Assembly: GCA_036172245.1 (NCBI GenBank)
Contig: JAYWIR010000001.1
Coordinates: 3,100,001-3,164,000 of the forward strand
From: Raillietiella orientalis
Lineage: Eukaryota
Length of the DNA: 64,000 nucleotides
Reading direction: 5' to 3'
Made by a program: the position numbers and the translations under genes. Each line of letters begins with the position of its first letter. Position 1 is the stretch's first letter. Shown here one piece after another: positions 21,295 through 62,819 of this stretch. The notes under the pieces are model-generated. The model did not search any database. It had not been told where the DNA came from and saw only the letters and a program-made list of their open reading frames with translations.

Positions 21295-21982
21295 GCCCGC
21301 GTAGGAGGCCATGTGGTTACTGTGGTCTCCGCGTGTGGCACTCGGCATTGCGAGTTCGAATAGTCGGCAAGAATCGGAGCAAAGAGTTTGTGCGCGTCGT
21401 GGGTTCGAGTCGGAGATAACGCTGTTCGACCTATACTTCCCGGGAAGGCGCCCAGTAGTGGTGCAAACTGTATGCCCCCGACGAGGTCCCAAGCAATGGA
21501 AGTCGACCTCCGAATCCCTTCCAGGAATTAAGGAGTGGAAGTTACCTTCCGGCCGTGCACAGGAGCGGACTCCCCTTTGGGGGGGACCCTCCGTAGAATA
21601 GGTGTGTCGCCACATCTCTAGAGTTCCAGAGAAGCGTGCCGCTTTCTTCGGGGAGAGCTCCCTTCTGAATTTCGGAAGCGTCCCTTCGGGGTTCCCTTCG
21701 GAGAAGAAAACATGGAGCGGACCCCTTCGGGGGTCCCTCCCTAGAGAGTAAAGAAAGGGAGGATTCTCTTCCGGGTTCCCGTCGGAGGCAACCAGGGTTG
21801 GGAGGTTCCCTTCGGGGATGCCTCCCCAGGCTTGAGAGGCGGTCCCTCCCCGGTATCTTGAAGAATTAACACACGTACCCTCGGGTGGGGTGGGGAACAG
21901 TCTCAAAGAGCTGCGTGGGATGCTGGTTCTTGAAGTACTCAGCGAACCCCCACAAAAAAGCTAAAAGCGAAGATTTCCATCG
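21295..21982 (+). mobile_element. SINE copy S4, divergent, with fewer hairpin units
   Basis: Head gcccgcgtaggaggccatgtggtt...gagttcgaat, shared ccaggaat(t/c)aagga, canonical hairpin at 21714-21740, then agtactcagcgaacc + A-tract + gaagatttccatc. Confidence 0.88.
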
Positions 21983-29495: not shown

Positions 29496-29496
29496 G

Positions 29497-31109
29497 GTGG
29501 CTCACGATGCTCTTCAGACACTGACCACGCCACCCATGGGGGCGTGAGGCTCTTCCAGCTATGGGGTAATCCCGGAGGGAGACCACGCTATGGATCCAGG
29601 AAGGCTTCGGAGGAAGGCATCCATACCTCTTACGCTTGGCAGAAGAGTTCTGAAAGGAACCTCAGCCCTGGTTGTTTCCGGAAGGACCCCCGGAGGTGAC
29701 CTCTCCATTCACTATAAAATTAAATTCAAATACACAAAATAAGACAGTCTTGCTTAATACAATCTTTCATTCAGGTTACCAATTAAATAACTAATTATTA
29801 TGCTACCTTAGTACAGTCAATATACCACAGCTGTTTATTATACACCGGGCAGATTATACCTTATATTACTCATAAGGAAATGTCTTTAAGAAACAGTTTA
29901 AACAAATTTTTGCTGAATTCCTTATAATATTCTCACTTTACAAATTTCTTTTCCTAAGGAAACCCAGAAAGAATCCATCCCCGGAATTTCTTCTCCGAAG
30001 GGAACCCGCAAGGAAACCTCTCCCTGTTTCCTATTCTGAAGAGAACCCCGAAGAGACGCTTCCAAGTTTTCTCTGAAGGGTCGCTCTCCGAAGGGAGCAG
30101 CGCTCTCCTTACACACTGGAATGCTACCCGAGGGGGATATCAACCAGCTCTATGGGACGAGATGGAGAGATCCCTCTTTACAACCGGAGGGGAACCCCAA
30201 AGGGCTCCTTGATTCCTGGAAGGACCCCGGAGAGCCAACTTCTAATCCCGACCAGTCAACGGGAGCATCTGGCTTCGACCAGTGCCTCGATACTGCTGCA
30301 CTGGGGCCTCTCGTGCAACGCTCACCCGCATCTGTGGACACGCGGGGGAGTGGACTCAAACTGTGCAAATTGTGGGGAGCGGGAATCCTTCCTGCACCTC
30401 CTAGTGGACTATGTTGCCCTCCGGCTCCTTTGGGGACGCTTTGCCACGACCCTTTGAATCCCCGGCGGCAACGCCAGAGACGTTGTAAAGCGCCTCTTCC
30501 TGCGCGACGCCCTCACTCCGGCCGCATCCCTAGCAGTACTGTGCGGCCCATGCGGCGGGACCTTGACTGTATGGAGCAGCGACAAAGGAGGAGGCCAGAA
30601 CGAAGGGACGCCAATTATTCTGCTGTCCTCTTCATGAGTACAGAGTCAACATGGACCCATCTGAGAGTCTTGAAACAGGAACAGCCGGCATCCTTACAAG
30701 GATGCAGAGGACGCCCTCCAGAACACAGTGATCTTTCCCGAACCTTTTTTTGAGTGTATATTTTTTGTTTTTCTTTTTGTTTATCTCCCCTTCCCCTGTG
30801 CTGCTGAGATGAACCCTGCTGGCCTGCGTGCCAGATCCTGGCAGGCTCCTTTTCGTATCCATAAGTAACGTGGCAGGATCAAACGTCCTGCCAAAGGCAT
30901 GTAGGTTTAGAAATAAACTCCCTGGCGTGACCAGGTGTCAATAGGGCCGCGCCCAAAGTCTGTAGGCCAACCAGCGTCATCCTGCAGGAGGGGGCTCGAA
31001 ATCCATGACGCATCCATCATTCTCGGCTCGATCCTTCCCCGGGCGGGATTCGAACCCGCAACGCGTGGTACGACGCGCGGAGACCACAGCCACACGGCCG
31101 CCAACGCGG
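29497..31109 (-). mobile_element. SINE copy S5, interrupted by an AT-rich insert (29711-29945) and LINE L2 (30287-30940)
   Basis: Segments 29497-29710, 29946-30286 and 30941-31109 are collinear with S7/S8/S3. Head gcgggttcgaatcccgcccggggaaggatcga on the minus strand. Confidence 0.88.
30287..30940 (+). mobile_element. 5'-truncated LINE 3' end (L2) nested in SINE S5
   Basis: LLHWGLSCNAHPHLWTRGGVDSNCANCGERESFLHLLVDYVALRLLW (zf-RVT-like), T-rich UTR, AATAAA at 30912 followed by a CCTGG/CCAGG hairpin. Confidence 0.88.
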
Positions 31110-33149
31110 TGGTTCCACGTTCCCATTATTCCTGTGCTTCCCCTTTGACCTCGTTCACCAGATTGGTCTTCGCTCCTGACCAAGGGTAGTAGTGCCTCAG
31201 TGGTTGCGAGCATGCTACGGAGTCCCATCCCCCATCACGCGTCCTCCGCACGCAGGATCCACATCTTCCTGTGCGGAGCTCTGCTCCGTGGACGACAAGG
31301 AGGTGGAAACGGGCCTCATGTCCTCCGATACTTTGAAAATTACTTGACCTGCGATGCGGCCACACGCGGGACATGGTCCTCCCGTGGTAAGGGCGTGTTT
31401 CCCATTAAAAGAGCACCATGCCTTCCTGACCTAAAGAAAAACTGAGTGCAAGAACAAAGCGCTGCCTTTGTGCTCCCTGTGCACTTCGTCGGCATGTTCT
31501 TGTTCCAGAGAAGGGGGAGGGGGGATCAGGGACAGAAAGCACCTATTGACAGCGCATAAAAGCAGTTTCCAGGGTTACTACAAACCACTGACTGTCATTC
31601 GAACCACAGGCAGCCGACCCTTGGAAAAAAGAGGAATGCACTGATGCACGTCATTATTGCACGTTTGCAAGCGCCCGATCCGGAGGGAGGGACTCGAGAA
31701 AGCGAACCTTGTTTCCAGAGCCACGACGCGGATGTTCTTCAGAACTAGTCGTTCCCTCAATGCTCCCGGGAACTGCTCTGACAAACGGGAAGGGATGTTT
31801 TTTTTTTTGGCCCGGTAGCGAAGGATCCCAAACTCTCTGACATGGAGATGACAACACCTTCCAGATGGAAAGAATTCCAATGGTGGCTTTCCGATCGCCG
31901 GAAGGGGAAATACCCTCTTCCCTACCCTCGCTATGGGAGGGCTAGCTCAGACTCCAAGCTCGAGCCTCGCTCAGCCCGCTTGTTTCCGGAAGAAACTGGT
32001 ACTGCGAACCATCCTTTTCGATATCTGCCGCCCCTCCGAAAGATCGGAGGACGGTTCGAGGAGATGTGGCAAACATTCGAACCGGCTTTTCAGTTCTCCC
32101 CGAGACGAGCAAGGGAGCCAGCCTGAACCCTCGCGGCAGACTCCTTGGGAACTCCCTTTCGCACGTATGCGGATGCAGCATGAGATGCACGCTGCATCCG
32201 GTGCGTTCCAACGAGCAGAGTGGCCGAGATAAATCGCTCGGTTCACCGGCGAGAAGAAACGGAAGAAACCCGCGGCGGCAGAAGCGGCAGACACTGCAAC
32301 AAGCAGCTGCTTCTGCATTCGGAGGATGCATCACCGTCCTCCTGGACGGGACAAGTGTTTGTGAAGACGGTAGGGCGTGCCCCAGACCGTTCGCTGCACA
32401 AGCGCCCTCAACTTGTAAATAAATGCACGTTGTGAATGGATTTTTTTTCTTCCTCACCCTCCGATACGAGCGCACACCTCTGAGGCGCAAACGGATCAAA
32501 AGGATTCAGACTCCGTTTCGGTCCTTGTTTGGCCTTTCTGGACCGTGGCTGATGCATCTGCCTTTCGAAAGACCGCTCTGTCTTCTTCCGCACACCTTTA
32601 AACGGCGAACGCAGCTGTGCTTTCACTTATGGTTAGGCCAATTTGAAAAAAAATCATGAGCGATGATCGTTGGTCACTACCGTCATCATGTGGAAGGAAC
32701 CTCGGCTCCGTTGAAGGGAAGGAAAAGGCGTTCTTCCTCCGATCAACTCTCTATCTCCAGATGCATCCCATGCTGCAGCGTCCACTACGGTTTCTTGAAA
32801 GCTTGCGCGAAAGCACGCATCCAGAAAAGTGTACAACGAAGCGGACACGCCAGTGCCGTTGAAAAGCACCAGACGCCACCGGAGAGTTCACCAGTCAAAG
32901 TGAATAACCAGAGGTCACACAGGCAGCATGTCCGCATGCCTCCTGGCTTTTCTGCAGTTCCTGCCGATCTCGAGAAATCCCGGCCCGTTCCTTTACCAAA
33001 CCCAGCGGGATGCCCACATGCTGCTCTCGGATGTTCCTGCTCGGGGGCTTGCGAATGCGTCGCTCTCGGGGCCGCTTTCCCCAGCCAAGTTCCTCCTCCT
33101 GCCTAGCTGGCGAAATCGGCGCGGCACGTTCGCGCCGCGCGTGTCGCGC

Positions 33150-33480
33150 GAGTCGGCAGGCGGCCGTCGAGGGCGCATGCGGAAAAGGCGTTCGCGATCC
33201 GCGCTTCCCGTTGGTTGCTGCGGGTACCTCCTTTCGGGCTCCCCAGCTCTTTCTGGAGTCCTTGCCTGGCTCCCGTACACTTCGAGAGCACGCGAACCGC
33301 CCTTCCTTGTGCGCAGTCTTGGAGCAGCAAAGCGCGCGTACGGGAGCCGCGTGCCCTCGCACTGCGCTGGCCCCATCCCTATGGCCTTCACCTCCTCCAG
33401 GTATCCCGCGGTGGTCTGGAGATGCTCCGGTGCTTCCTGCGTTCATCCTGTCTTGCAGCATGATCCAGATATCCTAGAAG
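33150..33480 (-). mobile_element. Possible decayed LINE zf-RVT remnant
   Basis: CCKTG*TQEAPEHL... and AAPVRALCC loosely resemble the C..C..E..HL and AA..ALCC motifs of other copies. Confidence 0.25.
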
Positions 33481-34479
33481 AGGCGACAAATGAACGACCG
33501 GCTAGATTACGCGGCTGAAGCCTCCTCCCCCTGCACCTATAGATCTCTGATTCAGAATTCAGTGCGATGACCGACTTCCCACCGAAAGGAGCATGTCCTT
33601 CGAGGAAGGTTGGCAGTCAAATGGGCGCACTGCCGCAACCAGGTGTCAAAGATGGAGGGGATGACCACTTCAAGAAGGGGTGATCTATTTTTGCCTTTCT
33701 TGAGAATACCAACCGCGAAGAATTCTCCCAGCATCTGGTTTCTGTGTTTGTTTCACTGTATTCTTCTTACTGCTTCGTACTTCTCACCACTCGATGAAAA
33801 CCCCGTTGATCCCTCAGCCTCTTGAGATCATCCTCTGATGTGAAATTTATATGTTGATCCTGCAACATGGAACGGGGAACGCGTGTCACTTCTGGTCAGG
33901 CCGTTGAGTAGGGTACCCGCCGAAGGTCAGTCGATCGGCGGCCATCGCTCTTTTCAGTGAAATCTGATAGTTTGAAACTTTGCATCTGAGCAATCAGCGG
34001 GGGAGTTTCGTCGGGAAAAATGGAAGATGACCCTTTGGAATGGCTGCCCTTGTTTGATCATCTCGCTGTATTTCCTGTGACCTGCTTACTTGGCTTCCAT
34101 TACATAGCAACAGCTTTTCTCTGAGGTCCGAGTAGCATTGGTAAGAAACGGAAGCTGAAATGGCCTTTCTTTTCGTCCTTTCACCACTGCCACTGTCCTT
34201 TCATTTCTTTTTTTTTTTTGTTTATTCCGTTTTCAAAAATAAAGACAAAGGAGGCAGATCATGATCTTCCGTGGTGCACCGTGATTTTGCCACTCGGAAC
34301 CTCATTCGAAACACCCAAGTCTTCCGCAAACGGACCATGTCTTCTGCGACCTCAGCTGGCGGAAGACGCGGTCTTGAAGGAGGAACAGAAAAAGTGATAG
34401 CTGAATATCGCAGCAACAATGGCGACAACCTGCTGACTGGATTTAGGGGAAATTTGCCGAACAGTTGGCCTCCTTTAGG

Positions 34480-35900
34480 GAGGACTGTGGAATGTTCCCA
34501 CTCCACGTCCGACTTCTCTCCGGATGCTGCTTGGCGGCCGGAAGACGCGCGAGTTAATGGGTGCCGTCACTCCGCGTGCTGTGGTGAAGGGGGCTCCTGC
34601 AGTGGAGTCGATTTCCCCGAAGAACTTGTGGTCCCTTCCCATTGCTTGGACACTTTAGTGTTCCCCCTCTCCAGGAAACAGGTCGTGCTGCTCTTCCTCC
34701 ACAGGCGGTTCCAGTGCAATGAGCGCAGTCACCGCGTTTCCCTCAGGGGTTACATTCCCGAACTGTGCCAGATGCGGATCTGCGAAGTCGATCCCTCACC
34801 TGTTTTTGGACTTCGGTACCCTCCTGGAACTGTGACGGAGGCTGGCAGCAGCACTCTTGCACCGGAGGGACACAGCCCGAGATGTGCTGCGGCGGTTCTT
34901 CGTGTCCAGCGGACTTTCGATGGACGCGGTGATTTCACACCCGGGTACGCCGGGGCGTTTATTCGGTTACACGAATCGATGGAGCCGATGGTCCATCAAA
35001 TCCCATTGTTATACTAGAAAGAAGGGGAGCAGCCGGAGAGGTCCATCACGTCCACGAAAGGGAAGGGGGAGATGAAACAAAATATGAAATGAAAACAAAC
35101 TATAACAAGCATCCCCCACCCAAAAAAAAAAAAAACAATAAAACAAACAAAAATTAGTTCGGGGGAAGGGAAGGGATCACATTTCATGGTGGATGAGGCC
35201 TCTGAATCCGTTGAAGGATGCCGGCGAGCTCCTCATTCTCCCTTTCTAGGTGGGGCCATCCCAAAGCTATCCGCAGGAAGCGGATGGCGTGCGGGACAGC
35301 CCCCCCGTCGCTTCGGCCTCCCTCGGCGTCGCACTTCGCCGCGACGACACCGCGCACGCAGCACAGCGCTGCGATTGCGGCTGCAGGCGTTATGGCGTCC
35401 CGCACGAAGAGGAGCCTCAAAGAGTCTCTGGGATCGTCCGCGGGATGTGGAATGGACGCGGAGAAACTTTCTCACAATTCCCGGAGGGCGACACAGTGCA
35501 CTATGAGGTGAGGGAAGGCCTCCTTCTCTCCACACCCGGCACAGTTCGTCGATGAGCTTCCCCTCGTCCAGTGGTGCCGGCGCGCATTGCACGGGAGACC
35601 CCAGAGCAGTGTCAGCAGCGCCGATTGCTGCCACTTGAAGGGAAGCAGCTTCCTGTCTATAAACAAGAAGGGAACTTCTAACTCTTCGGGCTGAATGGAG
35701 AAGAGTTCGCTCCAACGTTCGGCGCAGTGATCGCAGCTATAGGTTGCATCCTTGAGACCGTCACGGCCCACCATGTGCTCGAGACGACCACGCAGCGAAG
35801 GTAGGCCACCGAGATGGCAGCCACCCACATGAGGACGGATGCAAGGTGACCTCACCTGCAAGAAGAAGTGGAGGAGGAAATCGGCGGCATCCAGCGCAGG
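34480..35900 (+). mobile_element. Older-subfamily LINE ORF2 end (L3), interrupted by L4
   Basis: EELVVPSHCLDTLVFP...LFLH...PNCARCGSAKSIPHLFLD...RRFFV before 34933. Resumes at 35721 with AVIAAIGC...PHLQEE...IGGIQRR. Confidence 0.8.
34934..35720 (-). mobile_element. Younger-subfamily LINE 3' end (L4), antisense inside L3
   Basis: RWSELFSIQPEELEVP...WGLPCNARR...NCAGCGEKEAFPHLIVHC. Terminus AATAAAcgCCCCGGcgtaCCCGGGtgtgaa. TSD gacgcggtgat (34923-34933) / ggcgcagtgat (35721-35731). Confidence 0.9.
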
Positions 35901-36149
35901 TTTTGCAAGGAAGGAACGGAAGACACGGATGAACCTTGTTCCTAGCCTCCCTAGCGGACAAAAGACTTCCTCAGGATCGCCCTTTGGGGCACGGGGAGGT
36001 ACCGAGTCCAGCTGAAGGACTTTTGTGCTCCGCTTCGAGACAGCAGCATCGTCCACCTGACGCCGGAGAGATCAGAGCTTCAGCTCCAGGTTAGAATCTA
36101 GGTTAGGGCAAGGATTCTTGCCTTTGTAGCGAAGTTGTGGAGCACACCT

Positions 36150-37381
36150 GGTGAGACCCTTCACGCTTCCTCGTCAAGGAAGCCACTGGCAGCGTGGAAC
36201 TCGTGTCCTTCCTAGCGCGCTGTCGACGCAACGTCTCCCCCTGTGGACTGCAGCTTCGGCGGGTGGCTACACTCACCAGGGCCAGCAGCTGGATCTCGTG
36301 AAGCTCCGCGAACGGTAGTGCCTGGTTGCAGGAAATCATCCTCACGTGGACGAAGAACAAGCGATGCTTGGAACAGGCACAGCAATTGCTTCACTGTTTC
36401 TTATGACAACTGCTCGCTCCGGGAGATCCTGGAACATCCTGTGAAGAGTGCGTGTGTAGGCAGAATCTCCCTTGCCGCAGCACTGCTCTCCTTGCGGGGA
36501 ACATGTGGGCAGCAGAATTACGGCTAGATGAGCGGTTACTGTGGAAATCTCCGGCAGGAGCAGAGGACTGGGTGAGTGGACAACGGGCAGCTTACATAAG
36601 CTGCAACCCCGAGTGCCCCACCTCCAGGACTTTTGCGCTGTGGTGAGCTGCTGGATACTCCGGTGGAAAATCTGCAATGGCCCCCCAGCGCACTTGGAGA
36701 CCCAGACCCCATCATTAAAGTGGCAGGAGTCGGCGTTGATGCTGCTGCACTGGGGTCTCCCATGCAGCGTCAGCAGGCATCCCTGAACCCGGGCGTGTAA
36801 ACCCCAACTGTGCCAGGTACGAGAAGCGTGAATTCCTTCCGCACCTGCTTGTGGATAGTGTTGCCCTCCGGTCCCTCTGGGAACGCTTTGCCGTGATCCT
36901 GCGGACCCTCGACGGCAACTCCAGAGACAGCTCTTCGTACGCGATGCCCTACCTCCAGCCGCAACTCCAGCAGCTCTTTGCTGCCTACGCGGGATTGTAG
37001 CAGCCTGGAGCGATGTAGGAAGAGGACACAGCGACAGGAATGCCACCCAGTTTGCCATCCGCTTCATGAGGATGGCTACAAGATGACCCCATCCGGAAAA
37101 TATGAGGAATGGACTTGCCGGCATCCTTCACAGGATGCAGAAGGACGCCCCCCAGCAGACTGTAATCCCTTCCCGCACCCTTCCAAGTTCGTTTATCTAT
37201 TTTTCTAAATTTTTGTTTGCCTCTTCTCCCTGCTGCCGTGACAAACCTCATTGGTCTGCGTACCGGTGACACGGAAGGTTCCATTTGAAATGGACATGGT
37301 TGGACCAGTGGTCCAACCACAGAGGTTGCGAAGGTTTTATTTTTATATTAAATAAATTTCCCGGAGTGGCCGGGTGAAAAA
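36150..37381 (+). mobile_element. 5'-truncated LINE (L5)
   Basis: CGLQLRRVATLTRASSWI..., LKWQESALMLLHWGLPC, zf-RVT-like segment. AATAAA at 37351 followed by CCCGG-agtgg-CCGGG-tgaaaaa. Confidence 0.85.
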
Positions 37382-38520
37382 GTTCCCTCCGGGATGTCTT
37401 GCCGACCTTGCCGAGACGAGCAGCGAAAGCGGAGGTCCCTCCAGACGTTCTCAGGGAAAGCCGAGAGTGGACGAATGCTGAGCATGAAGTCAGGGAAGGG
37501 TACGGGGGGAGGGGGGAACAAAAGGGTAGGGGCAACTTCCGCAGGTCGCCGGCCAACAACCCTGTGGGCTCTTTTCGAGAAGACAGTCGTCGTCCGGTCG
37601 TATGCTTTGTCACTAGTCGTCTTCGCCTCCGAATCGCCAAGGTCTTCGCGGCGCCCTGGTCTCTCAAAGCTGGGCCCTCACGCGCGCGCAGGGGCCCAAG
37701 AGACCGTCTGGGAAGGGAAGGTGGCGGCGGGGGCGGCCGTGCGTGAGGCACTTCAGCGCAGCGACCGGTTCGCATGCGGGCAGTTGCGGTGAGGCACGCG
37801 CGCGTGGACCGACGACATCAAAGGCGAGGAGGTGCGAGACGGGTCATTTTATGGCTGGAGCAGCATCGCGTGGCGAAGTTTCTGGCGGGGTGGCGGAGGA
37901 TGCTCTGGCCCTCTTGAGGAATCCGAGCGCTCCTTCAGATCCCGTCCTCCGCTCTGGAACGCACTAGATCGGGTTGCTTCCGTTTTTTTATTCTGCTTTT
38001 TTTTTCCCGCTTTTAATTCTTTCTTCTTCTTCTTCTGTTTTTAGTCTTTGTGGGTGTCCGTTCCTCTTCGGCACGTAACGCAACTTCCGAATGCAGCAGC
38101 GCCCGCTCCGAGATTGCGTATCGACATCGAGAAGATAAAAGAGGGAGCGGAGGAGGGGCTCTCCGTCGCGTTATTCTTCTTCTATCTCGTTGGAATCAGC
38201 GTCGCAGCGATCGGAGCAAGAGGAAGCGGGGGAGATGTCAAACCCGGCCGACGTCGTCTCCATGTCAACCCTCATGCGATTTCGATCCTGCGAGGCGCAG
38301 CGCGAGCTGCCGCTTGAGATGCCCTGCGGGAGAACCCCGCTTCCAGCGACGCCGGCCGCCGCCGAACGTTGCGCAACCGAGGAAGAGGAACGCCGCGTCG
38401 CCACTGCTCCATTCGAGAGGTCCTGTTCCGGTGTGCATTTTCCCCGGAGCCTGGATCTGACGTGCGTCCGCAGCATCTCTCTAAAGAATGGCGCAACCCA
38501 CTGGAAATGCCTTTTTTTTT

Positions 38521-38536
38521 GTGTGTGTGTGTGTGT
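38521..38536 (+). repeat. (GT)n microsatellite
   Basis: About 8 GT units following a T-tract. Confidence 0.9.
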
Positions 38537-39270
38537 TTTTCCCCAGTTATCGCCGGAAGAGATCCCTGGAAATCGCTTCCCCTTTCCTCAAGGCGGGAAT
38601 ACGGGTACGTTGCCGAACCGGCAACTTTTCCTGGAGGCGCCCGCATCCCACCCAAGGGGAAGAGGATCGGTGGGTATCGCTCCGAGGCGAAGGAGTGGTC
38701 CCGTAGGAACGGTTCTGATCGAAGTGTTTTGCTCCCTCTCCCTCCCCTTGCGTCCTTGAGAGCGCGGACTCTTCGACCACGGAATTCGCAGCTCCGTTTC
38801 CGCTGGCGACGGCTCCGAACCACTGCGAAACCACCGCTTTTCTCTTCTAGGGAGGGCCCAGTCGGCACCAGCGGTTGCGCGCGTGGGGCACGTAGGTAAG
38901 AGCCAGCGTCCTTTCGGGGAGCTGCCCAGCTCCTCTTCCTTCTCCGCCGAAACCGGTGCGTTGCTTCAACGGCGCGCCCGTTGCCGACTCGGCTTCGCGG
39001 GAACCCCGGAGGGCGGCGCGCGCCTCCCCTACGCCAACAATGGGTCCGCAAACCACGACGCCAACCCTTCCCTACGTGCGCGCCCGTTCCGCGCGCACAA
39101 GCGGAATTCCTGCCGCATTTATTCTCGCCGGAAGGGGAGGATTCAAGGATCGGAAGGGCGCCACACCCCCGTCTCGATGTCCTGGGTCCAGGTCTCCGGT
39201 ATCTTGCGGAGCGAGCAGGAAGATCGCGAGCGAGACGTCTCGAGGGCCTGCCGAGGAAGCCGAGGAACCG

Positions 39271-39978
39271 TCGCCTCGCCGGCCGCTTTCGCTGCGGCCT
39301 CCGCGCGACGTGGTACCGAGCGTCGCAGGTTCGAATCCCACTCGGGGAAGGATCGACGCCGAGAAATGGGGGAGGGGGGACGTCGTGGGTTTCGAGTGCC
39401 TTCCGCAGGATGACGCGAGTTGGCCTGTCGGCTTCGGACAGGGCACTGATGAGAGCCGGAAGCCCCCGTTGACTGGCCGGGATTGTAAGTTGATCCTCCG
39501 GGGTCCTTCCAGGAATCAAGGAGCTCCTGTTGTGAAAAGGGAGCCGTACCATGGAGCTGGTTGATATACTTTTGGGGATTGCCTCTCCAGAGTGTAAGAA
39601 GCGTACTGCTCTCTTCAGGGAGCGTCCTCCAGAGAAATTGGGAAGCGTCCCTTTGTGGGGTTCTCTTCAAAGGAGGAAAAACAACGAGCAGTTTCCTACC
39701 GTGTTCTCTCCGGAGAAGAAATGAGGATTGTCCCCCTCCCGAGACAACCAGGCGGGGTTCCCTTCGGGGTTCTTCTACCAAACGTAAGAGTGACGGGCTC
39801 CTTCCTCCGGAACCTCCCTGGATCCATGGGGTGACCTCTCTCCTGGGCTGCCCCCTAACTGAAAGACTCACACACACCCTCGGGTGGCGTAGACGCCGCT
39901 CAAAAGCTTGGAGACCTCTTCCTGTAGGGAGGCGAATGGGTCTTCAGTACTCCTTAAGAACCCAAAAAGAAGGATTTC
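39271..39978 (+). mobile_element. SINE copy S6 (second subfamily)
   Basis: Head gcaggttcgaatcccactcgggg, shared ccaggaatcaagga and hairpin units. Tail ends after gaaggatttc. Confidence 0.9.
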
Positions 39979-41054
39979 TCGCGTGTTGCTTGAGAGGTCG
40001 GCGGCAGTTGAAGATCGCGGCGACGGAGAGCATCCACATCGGGAAGCAGGGCGTAACGGGGCATCAACGGTCATACCACGTCCTGGTCTTCGCACTGCTC
40101 CGGATCCTGAGCAACGCTCTTTTTTTTGTTTGATTTCCTTCCCTTCACTCCCTCTTCCCCCTTCTCTCTCTCCCATCCAGCGGTCCCAGCGCGAGAAGAG
40201 CAGACCTCCACCTGACGCGGTCGCCGGCTGCTGGTGAAGGGAGACAGGCAGGGAGGAGCAATCCCACGCGGGGGGAGCTCCGCTGACCCATAGGAGCCTC
40301 GCAGTGCACTTTTCGCGCCCAGGCAACGGAAACACCCCAGAAAAGGAAACGGAAGGAACCGCGGGCGGGCATCCGGAGCGCGTGCGACCCTCAGCACGCG
40401 GGAGCACACGGGTCCGCTTGAGGGGAGCGGGGGGGAGTCCGTTCGTCCGTTCACGCGCTCCTTTTCCCCTGCAGTCGCTCCGGGAAGACCTGACGGAGGG
40501 CCCCAAGAAGCTGGGAAGCCGTCCGTCTGGAGGAGGCGAGCGCAGGAAGGGGAAGGGGGGGAGGGACCGGGTCGCGGTGCGAGGAGCCCTGGGACGTCTG
40601 CGCGCGCAGTCCGCTGCTCCCGAAAGACGAAGCGGCGTTTCCTGAAAGCGAAAACCCCGCTGCCTGCCTTTCGCGTCTCACGGCGCACTCTGCCGCCGGA
40701 AATCCGGCGTTATCTGATGGCCACGACTTTCCTACGGCGCGTGAGATTCCAGTCTCTAGGAAACGGATGAAGGGATGCAGGGAGGGAGGAGAAAAAAAAA
40801 AAAAAAAAGGATGGAAGGAAAGAAAAGCATGGCTTGGAGATAAGGAACTGAAATCGGAAGCAAACCTGGAAAGGGGGGAGAGGTTCCTTTCCAGAGTTTC
40901 CTGGTGGAGAATTTCCTGGGAGCTGCCCTTCCCGCTGCCCTACGGAACGGGTACAAAAAAAAATTCCGAATCTTCCGGTTCGACTGGCCACCGAGCGCCG
41001 GCAGCGACAGGCGGTTGAGCCTGGCCGTTCCTCTGTCCTTGCAACAACTCCTTC

Positions 41055-41848
41055 TTATGAAAGTCCAGGGACATCTATCGTTGTTGTTGGCCTGGACTAA
41101 TGGCAACCCTCTTGGGTTTTTCCGCCCTCTCCACTTTCCTTCCAGTTGTTTTTTTCTTGGTTCTCAAGGAGTGCTGGAGAAACCGTTCGCCTCCCTATGA
41201 GAGGGGGGAGGGGGGAAGTTTTTTAACGCTGTTCACGCTACTCGAGGGACTCTTCCGGTTAGGGGGGCATCCCGGGGGGAGGCCACCCCATGGATCCAGG
41301 AAGGCTCTGGAAAAAGGAGTCCGTCCCTCTTAAGTTCGGTAGAAGAACCCCGAAGGGAACCCCGCCTGGTTGTCTCGGGAGGGGGACAATCCTCATTTCT
41401 TCTCCGGAGAGAACACGGTAGGAAACTGCTCGTTGTTTTTCCTCCTTTGAAGAGAACCCCACAAAGGGACGCTTCCCAATTTCTCTGGAGGACGCTCCCT
41501 GAAGGGAGCAGTACGCTTCTTACACTCTGGAGAGGCAATCCCCAAAAGTATATCAACCAGCTCCATGGTACGGCTCCCTTTTCACAACAGGAGCTCCTTG
41601 ATTCCTGGAAGGACCCCGGAGGATCAACTTACAATCCCGGCCAGTCAACGGGGGCTTCCGGCTCTCATCAGTGCCCTGTCCGAAGCCGACAGGCCAACTC
41701 GCGTCATCCTGCGGAAGGCACTCGAAACCCACGACGTCCCCCCTCCCCCATTTCTCGGCGTCGATCCTTCCCCGAGTGGGATTCGAACCTGCGACGCTCG
41801 GTATCACTCGCGCAGAGGCCCGCAGTCACGCGGCTGCTAGAGCGGCCC
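41055..41848 (-). mobile_element. SINE copy S7, convergent with S6
   Basis: Reverse complement of S6. Its tail (ctggaaggaaa...ccattagtccaggccaacaacaacgat...ctggactttcataa) is homologous to the S2 tail. Confidence 0.9.
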
Positions 41849-41849
41849 A

Positions 41850-42125
41850 TGTGGCCACGGTCCCGTCACCCCCTCCTAGGACACAATCGCCAGCGCCATT
41901 TGCTCCTTAGGGGGGGAAGACGGGAGACTCCCGTCAGGGATCACGTTCCATCCATGCTGGGACAGCATCTTGCTGCGCGCCAAGGTGGCCGTGCGGGAGC
42001 AAGGAAACGGAGACCTGGTTGCCTGAAGCCCTATCTCCCTCATCGAACGAGACTCCGCACCTTTTTTCTTGTCGGAGACCAGCACTCCCTGTGCGTTGAC
42101 ACCCGAAAGCAGCAGGTTCGAAGCC
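41850..42125 (+). pseudogene. Possible decayed non-LTR reverse transcriptase N-terminal fragment
   Basis: GITFHPCWDSILLRAKV...GNGDLVA*SPISLIERD resembles the W....I..I.K...RPISL...D motif of LINE RTs. Confidence 0.35.
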
Positions 42126-42130
42126 CCTAG

Positions 42131-42500
42131 CTATCCTTTGTTTCTCTCGATCAGATCCCGTAGGGAACCATCGGGGGTCTCTCCAGGAATGTTTCCACCC
42201 AGGAACGAACTTGACCTGCTTGCCAGGTGACCTTTTTCCTTTTCGGAATCATCTGAGTTACGTGTGCATACCCGAATTCTTCTCTCATCCTCTTTCACGC
42301 CTCCGCTAGACGGAAGAGCATGAAGGACTTGAATGGAAGCAAAAGCCGAAGGCGGATTCTCTGAATCCCCACAGGGAGCACATTCCCTTGGCTGCTTAGC
42401 AATGGGAAGATCAAGGGTTGCGTGTCTTCCTCGCTGCAAGATCTCTCCTCCCTGTTGTTGCCTCTTGTCTTGTCCTCCCACGTGGAAATCCACGGCTTTT
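42131..42500 (-). pseudogene. Possible decayed LINE APE-type endonuclease N-terminus
   Basis: ISTWEDKTRGNN...NVLPVGIQRIRL...GGV...EKGHL loosely follows the TWN.RG / LQE / GV / GR motif order. Frameshifted. Confidence 0.2.
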
Positions 42501-44184
42501 CGAGAGGAGGGGCCACCGGCGAGTGGGAGAGGGGGGGGGGAGAAGGAGCTCGGCGTGCTGTTGGAGGCCTCCCATTGTCTTCCAAAAGTGATCTGGGTGC
42601 CTCAGAGGAACATCTCGCTGCTCCCGGGGGGAAGGGGAGTACGGTGGGGATAATTAAGGGGTGGCAAAGACCAGGCCTGGCTGACGAGGAGGAGAGCGAG
42701 GGAGAAAGAAGAAATTCGGTGGCTCGAGCCGGTGGTGGCGTGAGGTTGACGTTGGCGTAGGTCCTTCTGGAAGTTGAGACCCGGGAAGGGGGAAAAGGAG
42801 AACCGTACTTTCTGTTTCCTCGTGCTTCCCCCAGTAGATGAGGACAACGGATAAGGGGCCTGGTAAGTGTCGACGCGTGTCGGTTTTGTTTGGCAGAGAT
42901 GGTCCTCAGAGGAGAGTTTGTTCAACGCTCAGGAAGAATACGGAAGAAAAGCACCTCCCACACTCACTTACTTCCGGACCCTCGGACATTTGTTTCAGCC
43001 ACCTCCGGTTCCAAAGGTCACGAGAGAATCCGCGTCTCCTAAGAAAGATGGAGACTCCGATTTTCGGCGACGCAGTGTAAGACGCGAGCGCGGACCGGAC
43101 GTCCCATTCGGTTCCTCAACTGCCGGGACGTGTTCTTCCGGTGCTTCTCTGGGAAGACGCTCTTCGTGTCTCCCGGGACACACTCGTGTTCCTGGAGACT
43201 GAGCTTGCGGACTGCAAACCGTCCGGGATGGTGCGTCGCGCCTTGCGGGACGGAATTGCAAGAACCCTGGTACCCTGCCTGCCCGCTGCGCTCATGCGCC
43301 TGGACTCCAAATCCCCCCACCCGCCCATCCGCGAATGGCGCGAAACGCATTGCGCTCCAGGAGAACCGAAGCTCCCCGATGTTCTGCGACTGATCCCCGC
43401 CGACGTGGTGCGGCTTGCGGACTGTTCCGAACGCGCGTGTGCTTCGCGTGTTGTGTCGTGACGTAATGGGAGGAGGTGTCGGGTGGAAGGAAGCCGTAGC
43501 AAACTCTCGTCGCAGTATCAGGGAGCCCAGTCGGCTAACAGTTTCCGGGAGCAGTGGCAGCGTGCAGCTCCAAATGAGACCCAGACCTGTGTGTTCGAAA
43601 GCGATTCCGAGAGATGAAAGAAAGTTCATCTTCTCAGAGCACGGAGAGGATGAGCCGCTAGTCTCCTCCCAAGGTCTGCTGCCTTCGCCGCTTGATGCTA
43701 AAGAATTTCTCGCGCCAGTTCCTCCTCTTCGGCCTCTCTCTGGGCCTCTCGGCGGGAACAAAGCAGAGCTCCCGAAACATCTGAAGTTACAAGATCTCTT
43801 CGACCTAGTCTGAAGAAAGACATGCCTCGGAGTTCGTAGCACTTTGTAGCTGAAGGACGATTTCTCTCCCCCCTCGGATCACATGCTTCTCATTTTTGTG
43901 TTTCATACGGGGAGCAGCCTCAAGACTTCCTGTTGTGAACTCTCGAGTGCAGACGGCGATCTGAGCACACTTCCTTTGTCAACAGGGTGCTGAATTTGGA
44001 TGAAAGTTTTTAAAGCAAAAATCTCGGTGCGGTCATTTAAAAAAAAAAAAAAAAATCAATAGTTAATGGACAAATTCAAGCCTTTGATACCTCAGTTTGA
44101 GCGGGAAAGAGGGGAAGGTGAAGAATATTTGGCAGACTGTGGCATCGTGACGTCCAGCTGCTCTTAGGTTACGACCCGATGTGG

Positions 44185-46670
44185 TTTTTCAGTCGGTCAC
44201 GCCAGGAAGTTCATTTAGAAAAATTCACAAGTCGGGAACGCAGTTGCAAAAGCAAAAACAACAGCATTGAGAGGTTCATGACACGTAGGTCGGCTACTGG
44301 GACAGTCCGGGAGGAGAGGGAGGGTTGCAATAAATAAATAAGAGGGAGGATTGGAACAGGGATCTTTGCGGCAGCTGATCCTTCTCGCTAAGAAATAGAT
44401 CAAAGTGCATACCCTGGAGATTTCTTCTTGCAGGTGAGGTCACCTCGTAGCCGTCCTCATCAAGGAAGCTGCCGTTCGGATGGCCTCCTTCCTTCGCTGC
44501 AAAGGACACTCCATGACAGTGCGGGCTGAGACGACGGCCGCAGATGCAGCATCTCTTTGCAATCACGGTATCCATCTTGCGGCTTTCCTCTCCGCTGTGT
44601 CGCTGTTCTGGTGAGAGCGAACACGTGGATTTGTTACCGCCCTGCGAACACTCCACCCTGTCGGCAGGAGAAAGTGAGAACGTGGACCCAGCTCACCCGG
44701 ACCCCAACGGAAGTTACCCGCTACCTAGAATTTCAGAAGACGGCGGAAGAACGTTGGAGGCGGTGGGTAGTGAGCTGACTATGCTGGCCTACCCATTAGT
44801 CACCCCCTTCGCCGCAGCTGTACCCTCCTCTATCGAGGTACATGGCACCTGCCTACCGGCAAAGTGGGAGGTTTCCTGCGGGATCTCGGCCCTCAGGAAG
44901 CCTATTGGTGGCTGGATACCGCGTGAGCTGGCTGACGCGGCAACAGCAAGAACCGCCTTTAAAGGACTGGAACGTTGGGGCGATCTCTTCTCCATTCAGC
45001 CCGAAGAGTTAAAAGTGCTCCCGGGTTTACGGACAGAAAGGTCCTTCCCCTCAAGTGGCAGCAATCGGTGCTGCTGACACTGCTCTGGGGTCTCCCGTGC
45101 AATGCGCGCCGGCAGCACTGGACGAGGAGAAGCGAATCGCCGAACTGTGCCAGTGTGAGGAGAAGGAGACTTTCCCTCACCTCTTAGTACAGTGCATGGC
45201 ACTCCGGAACATGTGGGAACGTTCTTCTGAGTCCCTTCCGCACACCGTGGATGATCCCAGAGACTCTTTGGGGTCACTCTTCGTGCGGGACTCCATTATG
45301 TCCGCAGCCGCAATCGCAGCGCTGTGCTGCGCGCGCGGTGTCGTCGCGGCGAAGTGCAACTCCGAGAGAGGCCGAAGCGACGGGGAGGCTGTCCCGCCTG
45401 CCATCCGCTTCCTGCAGATAGCTTGGAAATGGCCCCACCTGGAAAGGGAGAATGAGGAGCTCTCCAGCATCCTTCAACGGATGCAGAGACCCCATCCACC
45501 ACGAAATGTGATCCCTTCCCTTCCCCCCAACTAATTTTTGCTTTTTTTTTTTGTTTGTTTGTTATAGTTTGTTTTCATTTTCTATTTTTGTTTTATCCCT
45601 CTTCCCCTTCGTGGACGTGATGGACCTCTCCGCCTCCCCATCTTTCTAGTATAACAATTTGAATTGGTGGGTCATCGGCTCCATCTATTCCTGTAAGAGA
45701 ATAAATGTCCCGGCTCACGCGGGTGTGAAATCACGGTGCCTGCCTAACGAGTCGGCCGCGCCCGCGAAGAATCGCCGCAGAGAGTCCTTGGAGATGTTCT
45801 CCGGAAGCAGGAGCTCTACCACAGTTCTTAAAGGGCATCGCGGTCCAGCCCTAAGCAGTTCGGAGACGGCTCTCCTCCACAAACGAGACGCCGTCGCTGA
45901 TGGCACCGGAGGCCCCAGTGCAGAAACAGCGGAACATCCCGTTTCCAGCGTGACGGGAGAACGCAAGTGTGCATGCACAAGGGAGGAACCACAAGTTCTT
46001 CGAGGGCCACGCGCAAAAGCTCGCTCCGATGAAGCGGTCCCTTCGCCCGCGAACGAGGAACGTCGTCGTCCACCAGCTCGCGCGTCGTCCAGCCGTCCAA
46101 GAGTTTTCTTGCCCGTAACTCGTGCAAGAGAATTCTTACCCCACCGGTTGGCGACCGTCGCTGTTTGCCCTTAGGACAGACAGCGCTGCGGCAAGGGGTA
46201 TGGTGAACGGGCGGGCTCACTTCGTCGAGTCCTGAAAGACATCTCCCAGTGGGAGGGTTTAGCAGATACCGCAGGGAACGGAGTTCGTTCGGGTGCATTT
46301 CCAAAGTGGACGCCTCGGGACCGGACGCCATGCATTCCAGGTGTTGGGGCGACAAGAGTGGGCTTCCCAAAGCGAGGCCAGTTGCCTCAGCGGGAGGGCA
46401 GACCCACTCATCCTGCCGCATCGTTTGCGTGACAGCAACGGTAGGAGTTGCCGACGCAGCGCCGAAGGATGAAGCGTGCAGAAGTGCAGACCACAGCGAG
46501 GTCCACAATTGGGCACAGAGTGCCAGCTGCACCTCCAGTACGCTCTCTTCCCGAGTCAGGATGCTCGAGCCTGCATCCCGACGCGGTGTCACCAGGTCTT
46601 TCAGGAAACGTTGCAGCTCCCTGCAGGGCTTTTCCTCCGGAGGCACTGCGACCCGGATCTTCGCCGAATA
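44185..46670 (-). mobile_element. Older-subfamily LINE ORF2 end (L8), interrupted by L7
   Basis: ORF 45828-46823 ends GWTTRELVD...EELVVPPLCMHTCVLP..W...LFLHWGLRC...PNC. Resumes left of L7 with DTVIAKRCC and aggtgacctcacctgcaagaagaa (24 nt identical to L3). Terminus aatgaacttcctggcgtgaccgactgaaaaa at 44185-44215. Confidence 0.82.
44570..45728 (+). mobile_element. Younger-subfamily LINE 3' end (L7), antisense inside L8
   Basis: CGFPLRCVAVLVRANTWI..., RWGDLFSIQPEE..., CEEKETFPHLLVQC...ELSSILQRMQR. AATAAA at 45700 followed by a hairpin. TSD AATCACGGT at 44561-44569 and 45729-45737. Very similar to L4. Confidence 0.9.
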
Positions 46671-51540: not shown

Positions 51541-53220
51541 GATTGGAAGTTGACCCCCTCGTAGTCCTTCCAAGAATCAAGGAGTCAGTCCCCTTCGGGG
51601 CTCCCTCCGGTTGTGCAGATGATCTCCACTGCGTACCACGGAGCTGGTTGATGCACCCCCGGGGGTTGCCTCTTTAGAGTCAGAAGCATGCTTCTCCCTT
51701 CGGGAGCGCCCTCCAGAGAAATTGGGAAGCGTCCCTTCGAGGTTCTCTTCAGAGGACGAGTAACAAGGAGCAGTTCTCTTGCTGCTCCCACCGGAGAAGA
51801 GATTCAAGATTCAACTCTACTGGTTTCCTCGGAAGAAAAAAAGAGGGGCGGAGGAACCATCTGGAGAGAATAGGGAAGAGGTTTCCTTCGGGATTCTCTT
51901 CCAAGCATAAGGGGGACCAACTCGTTCCTCCGGAGCCTTCCTGGATTCATAGGGTGGTCCCTCCAGGGTCACCTCTTAACTTGAAGAGTCACACGCAGTC
52001 TCGGGGATGGAGTGGGCAGTGTTTAAAGAGCTTCGTGAGCCCCCCCTAAGGAAGCAAAGGGTTCTTCAGTGCTTTGGTAACCAAAAAAAACAAAACCCGA
52101 AAAAACAAACAAACAAAAGCTGAAAGGAAAGCAGCGAAAGCAGAATAACCCAAAAGGAATTCTATCATCCAAGGTCCCCTCTCCTTGCCCCAGAGCTACC
52201 CTCCCTAAGGGACGCAAGGGACAGCGTAATCCCAGCAAGGTGAGAAGTGACTTGCCGCATAGCAGCAAAGAAGAAACTTCTGGGGTCGTGGACAACTCGG
52301 GAAGTGACCGACGCTGCGACTCCGAGTGTCCCACCCCAAGGACCTGCACGCTGGGGTGATCTGCTCGACATCCCTCCGGAGAAGGTGAAGTAGTCCCCAT
52401 CGTGCTGCAGCAGCGGAGTGCTCCCCCTCAAATGGCAGGAGTTGGCTGCTGCATGGAGGAAATCCCGTGCAAAGCGCGCCTTCTCCCCCAACTGGACACG
52501 GGAGGAGCGTGGATGCTAAGTGCGACAGGTGCGGGAAGAAGGAGACCCTTCAGCACCTGCTGTTGGACTGTGCTGTCCTCCGATCCCTTTGGGATCGCCT
52601 TGCGACGATCCTAGGAACCCCGGAGGGCGGCCCCAGGGACATTTTCAAACGCCTCTTCGCGCGTCCCGCCTCTGCTGCCAGCCGCATCCCTAGCACTTTT
52701 CCCTGCTGTGTTCTCGGGAATCACGGTGGCCTGGAACGTCAGAAGAGACCGAAATGGCAGGGACGTCATCCACTGGGTGCGGATCTTCCGGAAAACCGGC
52801 TCGATATGTCCCCTCCTGGGTGCGACACGGGTGGAACTGGCCAGCATCCTGAATAGGATGCCGAGGACGCCTGGCAGTGTACTGTGATCCCTTCCTCTCC
52901 CCCTCCCCCTCCTCATGCATAATTTCCCTTCCTCTGTTTGTTTGTTTTTTTGCTTCCCCTTCCCCCACGCTGACGGAGCGGACCTCGCCGGTCTGTGTGT
53001 TGGTCTTTGGCTGGTGCATTGCACGTGGTAGAACCAAGGGCTCCAACACACCAATGTATTTTTCTTACTTATGTAATTAAATCTCCAGCATAACCAGGTG
53101 ATGATCATCCAAGACCAGTAGCAGCCAACCATGTGTGAGTGAAATCATCAACGATCGGCAGCAATAGGGAACGCTAGAAAGAGAATGGTGGTGGGGGGGT
53201 CAGATCAATGGCTATTAATA
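51541..53220 (+). mobile_element. SINE copy S8, 5'-truncated, tail interrupted by LINE L9
   Basis: Body homologous to S6 from gattggaagttgacc. A-tract at 52083-52118. Tail ctgaaaggaaagcagcgaa...tctatcatccaag|accagtag matches the S2 tail. Right boundary uncertain. Confidence 0.8.
52174..53103 (+). mobile_element. 5'-truncated LINE (L9) nested in the SINE S8 tail
   Basis: GSWTTREVTDA...RWGDLL..., KCDRCGKKETLQHLLLDCAVLRSLWDRLA. ATTAAA + ccaggtg terminus. Perfect TSD ATCATCCAAG at 52164-52173 and 53104-53113. Confidence 0.92.
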
Positions 53221-57247: not shown

Positions 57248-58130
57248 TTTTCACTTGGCCACGCTAGAGCGTTTATTGTAAGAAATGCGAATTTCAACAC
57301 TAAGCCTTTCAATAAAGCGCGTGGTTCCAGTGCCCCCACTTCCGCATGTTCCGGAGGAGATCCCTGCTTGGAGCCAGGAGAGTCGTCGGAAGAGGTCCGC
57401 GCAGGGAAATTAGGGGGAAAAGAAAGGAAAAAAAATAAATAAATACGAAACAAAAAAAAGCATTAAGATGTCAGGGAGGTAAGGAAAGATCACGGACTGC
57501 TTCCTGGTGGCCTTTGCATTCTCTCGAGGATGCCGCCAAGTTCCTCTCGATTGTGCCTTAGGCGCGGCCATCTAGCAGCCATCCTTAAAAACGAGAAGAC
57601 GAAGGAGGCGGGTTCTCTGCTTTTCCGACCTCTGCTGTAGGGGCTTCCAGGTGCCCCGATCCCGCGGAAGCAGCACAAAACTGCTCTCGTCGGCGCGGCA
57701 GGCGACATCCTGCCACGCAAAGTGAAGGTCTGAATGAGGTCCTCGGGAGGTCTTCCGGGAATTTCAGGTTCGTGGTGAAACGTCCCCGCACACACCGGAG
57801 GGCAGCGAACTCCAAAAGCAGGTGTGGCAAGGTTTCCCTTTCGTCGCACCTGTTCCACTCTGGGGTCTCAGTTTCCCTGGTCCAGTGCTGGAGGCGCTCA
57901 CTGCAAGGGATGTCCCGATGCGGCAGTCGTAACGCCCGAGTCCTGCCTCTTCAGAGGAAGCACGGAGCTGTCGAAGAGCACCGCGGGGACCTACACTTCC
58001 TTCAACAGGATTCCAGGGAGATCCGTCCAGAGGAGAAGTCCTTTGGGGAGGGCGACGGGAGCGGAAGCGTCAGTCAGCTGATGCACCGTCCAGCATCCCA
58101 ATTGCTTCTTTTTTCCTGCCACTTTTTTCC
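57248..58130 (-). mobile_element. 5'-truncated LINE (L11)
   Basis: KKKQLGCWTVHQLTDA...VLPLKRQ...AVLCCFRG...WPRLRHNREELGGILERMQR. T-rich UTR and terminus aataaacgctctagcgtggccaagtgaaaa. Confidence 0.85.
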
Positions 58131-62500: not shown

Positions 62501-62612
62501 CTGTCACTTGCTGCCGGACGCTTCGAACGTTACAGACCATTCCTTGCTCGGCAAGACAAAATACCCGGAGGACATCAGGGGGGATCTCTTTGCGAAACGA
62601 TGGTCGTGCTGT

Positions 62613-62807
62613 TTCTCACCCGGGTGCGCCGGGGCGTTTATTCCTAAACTATCCAGGAACAGAGTTCCCGGACAAAGGACACAGGAGAAACGAAGGGGGA
62701 GGATCCCGGACACGCAGTCGGTAAACCGAAAGTCCGGAACGGGGGGAGGGGACCACAAATACAGATATAAAATATAGAAATGAAGATATGGGGGGGTAGG
62801 GGACAGG
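62613..62807 (-). mobile_element. Extremely truncated LINE insertion, 3'UTR only (L12a)
   Basis: Terminus aataaacgccccggcgcacccgggtgagaa. Perfect 11-bp TSD GGTCGTGCTGT at 62602-62612 and 62808-62818. Confidence 0.85.
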
Positions 62808-62819
62808 GGTCGTGCTGTG

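Follow-up and report, generated by a model that had tools for sequence, protein, structure and literature searches.

Two antisense insertions of one LINE subfamily at the same nucleotide of related LINE copies in a 64,000-nucleotide stretch of Raillietiella orientalis DNA

We analysed a 64,000-nucleotide stretch of Raillietiella orientalis DNA (contig JAYWIR010000001.1; hereafter the window), eukaryote-like and rich in repeats, and found in it two 5'-truncated copies of one subfamily of long interspersed nuclear elements (LINEs), L4 (34934..35720, minus strand) and L7 (44570..45729, plus strand), which lie antisense inside copies of a related LINE lineage, H3 and H8, respectively. There are thus two events at the same nucleotide of the host and in the same orientation, each with a target site duplication (TSD) and both with a conserved 3' end. 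Comparison of the sequences firmly supports the view that L4 and L7 represent two independent insertions by target-primed reverse transcription (TPRT), and a sequence-directed choice of site is probably the simplest reading of the identical nick position and orientation. LINEs with sequence specificity act as natural machines for site-directed integration and illustrate how a mobile element can reach places where it does no harm; most of their known targets are ribosomal RNA or small nuclear RNA genes, microsatellites, telomeres or DNA transposons. Competition of LINE against LINE would join this picture if it is true that one LINE homes to a single nucleotide in another, related LINE's coding tail, and target and endonuclease would then form a compact pair to investigate. 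With two cases at hand and the endonuclease sequence missing, the finding is a lead and not a demonstrated system.

The two inserts belong to one subfamily. L4 is 787 nt long and corresponds to positions 401-1159 of L7, with 83.6% identity over 787 nt by blastn and 86.1% over 760 aligned columns by global MAFFT alignment; the preliminary description of this DNA was right to place them in the same subfamily, but its wording "very similar" was generous for an identity of 84-86%. L7 is 1159-1160 nt long; its last A is ambiguous with the TSD, and 45728 is an equally valid end. Its 5' end reaches 372 nt beyond that of L4, and this additional stretch is genuine LINE sequence, because it is homologous to three other LINE copies of the window (L5, Lb and Lc, described below). 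L4 contains an intact C-x2-C-x7-H-x4-C motif, the tail of open reading frame 2 (ORF2), the 3' untranslated region (UTR) and the terminal hairpin, and ends in GGGTGTGAA; copies of the L4/L7 type terminate in CCGGGTGTGAA, and the 3' junctions of both L4 and L7 read ...GGGTGTGAA|ATCAC. L4 and L7 differ both in their TSDs and in the point of 5' truncation (11 nt and 787 nt for L4 versus 8-9 nt and 1159-1160 nt for L7), as had been claimed. The TSD of L4 consists of gacgcggtgat (34923-34933), the copy adjoining the 3' end of the insert, and ggcgcagtgat (35721..35731, plus strand), which agree at 9 of 11 positions, both mismatches being transitions; the shorter 5' end of L4 directly abuts the host's own TSD. 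The TSD of L7, (a)atcacggt, is perfect over 8-9 nt, with one copy at the 5' end of the insert (aatcacggt, 44561..44569, plus strand) and the other at its 3' end (45729-45737, or 45730-45737 if the ambiguous A is assigned to L7). A longer TSD at the 5' junction of L7, where GATGGAT resembles GATGGAC in H3, was considered and set aside as coincidence, as this stretch aligns with L5.

Both hosts are interrupted LINE copies. H3 consists of a part upstream of the insertion point (34389..34933, plus strand), which comprises a zf-RVT-like region and the tail of ORF2 and ends in ...GACGCGGTGAT, and a part downstream of it (35732..36141, plus strand), which starts with CGCAGCTATAGG... H8 lies on the minus strand and consists of an upstream part (45730..46216, or 45738-46216 when the TSD copy is left out), ending in the host sense in ...GGCACCGTGAT, and a downstream part (44188..44560), which reaches its own 3' hairpin end near 44188. 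With the LINE profile, nhmmer aligned the upstream part of H3 to profile positions 24-555 and the two parts of H8 to positions 56-561 and 647-1005, while tblastn with LINE ORF pieces, run on a small database, gave E-values of 1.4e-6 and 3.8e-10 for the upstream parts of H3 and H8, respectively. The profile-matched stretches are 34389-34903 and 35791-35898 on the plus strand for H3, 34389 being not necessarily its true 5' limit, and 46216-45758 and 44498-44188 on the minus strand for H8. Among the eight LINE 3' ends examined, L4 (E-value 7.8e-16) and L7 (E-value 2.6e-11) are the only ones whose flanks match the LINE profile in the orientation opposite to the insert. The earlier statement that they lie antisense inside related LINE copies is therefore confirmed by profile matches on both flanks and by the tblastn matches. 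Inserts and hosts are only 47-51% identical at the DNA level, and therefore belong to different lineages.

The relationship between H3 and H8 is visible in the motifs EELVVP..C..T.V.P and LFLH and in a stretch of 24 identical nucleotides, AGGTGACCTCACCTGCAAGAAGAA, all of which had been pointed out before. The latter is located at approximately 35839-35862 in the downstream part of H3 and 44428-44451 in H8, and is identical though the two hosts are only about 55% identical overall; it includes the palindrome AGGTGA-CC-TCACCT and overlaps the region coding for a WPHL..E..EL-like motif of the superfamily. Together with CTGCGGCG-N-TTCTTCG, it forms an island of near-identity in this background, and both islands fall in motifs conserved across the superfamily. 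Because such conserved islands persist at about 55% overall identity, the distance between H3 and H8 is probably largely a divergence between H subfamilies, and the hosts need not be very old. Accordingly, the notion of an "older" host family stands insofar as the hosts are far more diverged from each other than the inserts are, but not as a statement of age, since the distance may reflect subfamily divergence. That the inserts parasitise and disrupt active elements is not shown: all that is visible of H3 and H8 is a 3' fragment each, roughly 1 kb long and lacking a reverse transcriptase (RT) domain in its vicinity, and such truncated hosts do not demonstrate the disruption of a sister family. 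A reading in which the H copies serve as a safe haven fits as well.

To locate the insertion points relative to each other, the two hosts were aligned without anchoring by MAFFT, each insert and one TSD copy having been excised. The base preceding the insert falls in the same column (577) for H3 and H8 in all three MAFFT modes used, and the insertion columns also coincide in an alignment of eight sequences. The reconstituted junctions are ...GGACGCGGTGAT|CGCAGC... in H3 and ...GGCACCGTGAT|TGCAAAG... in H8, and the host codons at the site are GCG GTG ATC GCA and ACC GTG ATT GCA, respectively. Both the unanchored alignments and the codon readings thus bear out that the two 3' junctions lie directly after GTGAT in the xVIA codons of the host. 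The two targets share G.C.C.GTGAT|YGCA, and of the eight aligned LINE copies only H3 and H8 have GTGAT at the insertion column. The homologous site of L4 and L7 themselves has GCAAT instead (GCCGCAAT|CGCA, identical to the H3 site at 11 of 14 positions), and L5 has neither GTGAT nor an insert at the homologous column. By nhmmer, the window contains no H-type copies other than H3 and H8, both of which are occupied; likewise, it contains no members of the L4/L7 subfamily apart from the two inserts, each of which is inside an H-type copy.

The independence of the two insertions follows from a comparison of host and insert divergence. While the inserts are 86.1% identical (Kimura two-parameter distance, K2P, 0.16), the outer and inner host flanks are only 58.1% (K2P 0.64) and 52.2% (K2P 0.77) identical, respectively, with shuffled controls at 40-47%. 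The contrast persists in the immediate vicinity of the junctions, where identity over the first 100 nt of each flank is 58-59%, and it is highly significant by Fisher's test for both the whole flanks (p = 9e-42) and the nearest 100 nt on each side (p = 2e-15). A blastn comparison of the 1213-nt block gave the same contrast between insert and flank.

The LINE copies of the window can be recognised by their 3' ends. The pattern AATAAA-N3-CCCGG-N5-CCGGG-TG occurs five times in the window when up to three mismatches are allowed, versus 0.04 occurrences expected, and all five are 3' ends of LINE-like fragments. Looser matching of this motif and nhmmer profile searches completed the inventory to nine LINE copies, all of which are 3' fragments of about 0.2-1.2 kb. 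They share a pyrimidine-rich 3' UTR and end in a 5-bp hairpin followed by GTG-N-GAA, without poly(A). The form AATAAA-N3-(5-bp stem)-N5-(stem)-TG-N-(G/A)AA is kept in all eight 3' ends (30912-30941, 34934-34963, 37351-37380, 44188-44215, 45700-45729, 53075-53103, 57248-57275 and 62613-62642), none of which carries poly(A). One stem pair shows a compensatory change from CG to UA in two of the eight sequences, and the hairpin of the copy La has the compensatory form CCTGG/CCAGG. The conserved 3' ends and this stem pair suggest that the 3' stem-loop may be recognised by the RT, as in LINEs of the "stringent" type. Variable 5' truncation, a common 3' end and TSDs occur together in L7 (1159 nt; TSD copies matching at 9 of 9 positions), L4 (787 nt; 9 of 11) and a third element, T3 (195 nt; 11 of 11).

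The coding capacity of these fragments is restricted to the tail of ORF2. L4, L7 (CCHC motif at 45148-45195) and Lb have kept the C-x2-C-x7-H-x4-C zinc knuckle intact, and the common ORF tail has the form ...LF.RD....AA...ALCC.RG...WPHL...EL..IL.R.Q.... The Pfam domain zf-RVT (PF13966) matches three of seven ORF pieces, all below the gathering score: the best match is that of Lb (E-value 5.9e-4, 20.9 bits versus a cutoff of 27.5 bits), and that of L4 is weak (E-value 0.0064, below the cutoff). In a protein atlas, 21% of the members of the look-alike cluster of the LINE tail are zf-RVT. Apart from these weak zf-RVT matches, Pfam identified no protein family in the window, and Rfam matched no RNA family in it. 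In particular, none of the 184 stop-to-stop ORFs of at least 110 aa in the window contains an RT or endonuclease domain, nor was either found in the 104 ORFs scanned out of 221 of 45-109 aa listed on the relevant strands beside the LINE copies, the other 117 lying at 8-18 kb. The absence of an RT is what 5' truncation would give, and does not exclude membership of these copies among the LINEs. No longer homologous proteins of the L7 tail ORF were found at an E-value cutoff of 0.001. When a profile of the seven LINE ORF pieces was searched against 1.84 billion protein representatives, the sole relative of the LINE tail was P0001 (E-value 9e-25), a JGI/IMG metagenome protein of 87 aa that spans PRD..LF.RD...AALCC...WPHL...ILERMQR; since it is the only relative among so many representatives, the family is almost absent from protein databases. 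A search of PDB sequences with the LINE-tail profile returned nothing meaningful (best E-value 1.3). One metagenome scan with the 3' end pattern yielded a match, L001, in an AT-rich contig with a terminator-like hairpin, which we judged to be a chance match.

As the explanation of these observations we favour, with a probability of roughly 0.6, that L4 and L7 are separate TPRT insertions by one LINE subfamily, the site being chosen through sequence recognition by the endonuclease of the element and H copies being preferred. The subfamily has no poly(A) tail and ends in the conserved hairpin AATAAA-N3-CCCGG-N5-CCGGG-TG-N-GAA. The endonuclease would nick the sense strand of a pre-existing H-type LINE copy directly after GTGAT, where the ORF2 tail codes for A/T-V-I-A, some 40 codons downstream from the CCHC zinc knuckle; the 3' OH of this nick would then prime reverse transcription, and a second-strand nick 8-11 nt away would give rise to the TSDs. 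The 5' ends were truncated at different points. The endonuclease may recognise approximately G-N-C-N-C-N-GTGAT|YGCA, and because such a sequence is asymmetric, both inserts would come to lie antisense to the host. Copies of the H lineage would be the preferred landing place, as a repeat "safe haven". The motif is lacking at the homologous site of the subfamily itself (GCCGCAAT|CGCA) and in the other LINE copies.

The third element, T3, bears on how the site might be recognised. It is a copy of a related subfamily that consists of the 3' UTR only (195 nt; 62613-62807, minus strand, or 62602..62818 with its TSDs), which shares the terminal hairpin and ends in GGGTGAGAA, and it is flanked by a perfect TSD of 11 nt, ggtcgtgctgt (62602-62612 and 62808-62818). 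Of the three elements, T3 is apparently the youngest. By blastn it shares 93.5% identity with L4 over the terminal 31 nt, and the alignment crosses the junction by 15 nt into the flank (34918-34964 versus 62598-62643, 87%). When anchored at the junction, the targets of T3 and L4 agree at 12 of 16 positions with one gap, a level reached by 3 of 20000 random positions of the window. For T3 this leaves a "similar 16-nt target" only, which we take to hint at recognition of a DNA sequence by these elements rather than of "a LINE" as such. We also considered whether the flanks of T3 and La, in which a similarity strikes the eye (a shared GGGCGCGGCC; PEDI..LF), might represent an H-type site; their local alignment scores are not above those of shuffled sequences, nhmmer and tblastn found no LINE homology in them, and the idea was rejected for La.

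How far could chance account for the common site? Both strands counted, the window has 118 GTGAT sites; on the host-sense strand there are two occurrences in H3 and one in H8, and on the antisense strand of the hosts there are none. By our own arithmetic, two random hits on GTGAT would fall on both homologous H sites with a probability of about 1e-4. Without any sequence preference, the same nucleotide and orientation would be orders of magnitude less likely than that, hence vanishingly unlikely, and because chance alone is so unlikely, the element has at least a short sequence preference.

Several points weigh against the reading that we favour, however. It is judged from two insertions only (n = 2), which were chosen post hoc, and the proposed mechanism has no endonuclease or RT sequence behind it. 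If the preference covers just 5 nt, about 1e-4 per window is too high a probability to be neglected when very many windows are scanned. Three other GTGATYGCA sites of the window (2833, 19561 and 47973), all outside LINEs, are empty, so that two of five are occupied, and an 11-mer identical to the core of the H8 target (GCACCGTGATT, 34276-34286), at the upstream edge of H3, is empty as well. The nick site of T3 is GCTGT and not GTGAT, and the similarity of its target to that of L4 is weaker at a length of 20 (reached by 139 of 20000 random positions), the length of 16 having been chosen post hoc. Local alignment of the surroundings of T3 with H3 is no better than with shuffled sequences (131 and 138 of 300 reach the score), and no LINE homology was detected around T3 by nhmmer at E-values up to 10 or by tblastn, whose best E-value was 0.12. 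Counting T3, the antisense H-type flank is found in two of three copies instead of two of two.

These points feed an alternative that we regard as unlikely, though as one to be reckoned with, namely that a weak preference for roughly GTGAT combined with coincidence in a LINE-dense region, and that there is no dedicated targeting of LINEs by LINEs. As GTGAT occurs only once or twice on the sense strand of each host copy, the same site would be nearly forced once a GTGAT of an H copy is hit; furthermore, T3 lies outside any detectable LINE, the three GTGATYGCA sites and the copy of the H8-target 11-mer are unoccupied, and the other copies of the superfamily (La in the repeat R1, and Lb, Lc, L5 and H8) have unrelated 3' flanks. 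On the other hand, H-type sequence holds only 3 of the 118 GTGAT sites of the window, yet both L4/L7 copies are in H copies and both H copies are occupied; the shared context of the targets extends beyond GTGAT to G.C.C.GTGAT|YGCA; and the target of T3 resembles that of L4. The earlier proposal of a sequence-directed LINE that parasitises a sister LINE therefore survives in part: the independence of the insertions and a probable choice of site stand, but dedication to this LINE is not shown by two copies with a related T3 outside any detectable LINE.

A bolder version, which we consider quite doubtful, would make the L4/L7 subfamily a dedicated "hyperparasite" LINE, whose endonuclease would recognise about 10-15 nt of the coding sequence of a sister LINE's ORF2 tail and which would integrate there almost exclusively, in antisense, its own homologous site escaping by three base differences (GCCGCAAT versus GCGGTGAT). 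If true, it would amount to an arms race between LINE lineages, fought in coding sequence that the victim cannot freely change. It seems improbable that the site was instead found by homology, through a read-through transcript as in R2, in which a master element in an H-type site would provide flanking RNA that anneals to nicked H copies and determines where reverse transcription begins. The lack of poly(A) and the fact that L4 and L7 end at exactly the same base beside ATCAC would fit this idea, as would the statement in the available text of PMC4494074 that integration into a specific target can be strengthened when element and target are cotranscribed. However, the 3' flanks of L4 and L7 diverge right after ATCAC and derive from the target, because each matches its own 5' TSD copy, so that there is no transduced flank of a master; moreover, T3 has a different flank, and a nick by an endonuclease at the exact base would still be needed. 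Finally, it is very improbable that one ancestral composite was duplicated, e.g. by an inverted segmental duplication around 40.4 kb, followed by a 372-nt deletion in L4 and/or gene conversion of the inserts: although the composites are inverted relative to one another and collinear with a 91% inverted pair of R1 (39292-39971 and 41150-41825), and the blastn match between L4 and L7 runs about 47 nt into the outer flank, duplication is rejected because the inserts are 86% identical and the host flanks only 52-58%, a contrast that holds within 100 nt of the junctions too (58-59%), while the stretches 35.9-39.3 kb and 41.8-44.2 kb show no further inverted collinearity with each other, a mirror copy of L5 is missing, the deletion would need to stop exactly at the boundary of a TSD, R1 occurs in many copies, with at least seven fragments in the window, and L4 and L7 differ in 5' truncation points and TSDs.

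The remaining LINE copies of the window are diverged 3' fragments of the superfamily, namely, L5 (about 36242..37380, plus strand), La (30289..30941, plus strand), which lies inside R1, Lb (52108..53103, plus strand), with its CCHC motif intact, and Lc (57248..58126, minus strand). No TSDs are recognisable for L5, La, Lb, Lc, H3 or H8. The 3' flanks of La, Lb, Lc, L5 and H8 are unrelated and not LINE by nhmmer and tblastn. Nesting of a LINE in a LINE concerns only two of the nine LINE fragments of the window. R1 is unrelated to the LINE tail, and the two members of its inverted pair are 1.2 kb apart. Further copies are located at 29496-30286 plus 30964-31119, 51541-52044, 10051-10186, 16588-16722 and 21630-21817, the copy at 29.5-31.1 kb being split by La. 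An open frame of 464 aa (38275-39666, minus strand) runs through one R1 copy and has no Pfam match. A large palindrome over 34-46 kb was ruled out, as only the R1 pair and the composites match. Another repeat family occurs in the AT-richer left part of the window (5230-5448, 9593-10330 and 16448-17159) and includes a 90.6% inverted pair (9665-10330 versus 17120-16448). The G+C content forms a local peak of 55-60% in the LINE-rich region 28000-46000, versus 44-50% in 4000-26000.

Among known systems, target-specific LINEs of the Tx1 clade are close to our case; the copies in the window have no RT or endonuclease by which to place them in a clade. A CCHC motif downstream of the RT is, we assume, compatible with the Tx1 group. 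That several Tx1-clade elements are target-specific, including for other transposons, as stated in the preliminary description, is supported by the available text of PMC4494074, according to which some families prefer DNA transposons or long terminal repeat (LTR) elements: Tx1 inserts in the piggyBac element Tx1D, Tx1-Mar in Mariner-N4_AMi, Tx1-9_AMi about 300 bp from the 5' end of Harbinger families, and Tx1-8_Crp and Tx1-4_AMi in LTR retrotransposons. Its Methods take a LINE as target-specific if one sequence type makes up more than 20% of the flanks of the family, and target choice is ascribed there to the encoded endonuclease. Our case is similar in that a non-LTR element recurs at a defined position of another mobile repeat, with TSDs. 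As far as that text goes, it differs in that the target is a related LINE, hit in antisense in the tail of ORF2, in that the L4/L7 end is a hairpin plus GTGNGAA and not poly(A) or a simple repeat, and in that two insertions stand against the genome-wide censuses of PMC4494074.

R2 has a restriction-like endonuclease and a cellular gene as its target. The target here is not a cellular gene, and the type of endonuclease cannot be read from the window. What the two have in common, following the available discussion of R2 in 28S rDNA in PMC4494074, is the use of the same nucleotide of a repeated target, and a co-transcribed flank might aid precise priming here too. The ingi/RIME elements of trypanosomes, for which the available text of PMC7563717 describes a hot spot in the RHS genes, likewise insert, as a LINE with its relatives, at a single defined position within a multicopy family, many of whose members are thereby split in two; there, however, the target is a cellular multigene family, and organism and clade are unrelated as far as can be told. 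The available text on Cnl1 of Cryptococcus (bioRxiv 10.1101/2021.08.11.455996) reports subtelomeric arrays and states no specific site internal to Cnl1. A phrase search of the literature for LINE-targeting LINEs found none, its rigid wording making this no evidence of absence.

Zepp and ZeppL, L1-type elements of green algae, insert into their own copies and leave clusters mostly of 5'-truncated 3' ends, as described in the available portions of PMC8226300 and PMC3446292. The window resembles them in that new LINE copies are found in existing LINE copies and in that LINE-rich DNA is richer in GC (here 0.55-0.60 versus 0.44-0.50), and the Chlorophyta members of the atlas look-alike cluster of the LINE tail are a weak hint in the same direction. 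Self-nesting of the Zepp kind is not what we found: the low identity between inserts and hosts given above, the antisense orientation, the position of La in R1 and the non-LINE 3' flanks of the other copies all differ from it. In contrast to the self-targeting of Zepp, with its nested or tandem arrays, one subfamily is here inserted in a strongly diverged lineage, antisense and at one nucleotide. Transposon-targeting LINEs are thus already known, from the Tx1 families to Zepp, and what sets the present case apart is that a distinct, related LINE lineage is hit in antisense at one nucleotide of its coding tail.

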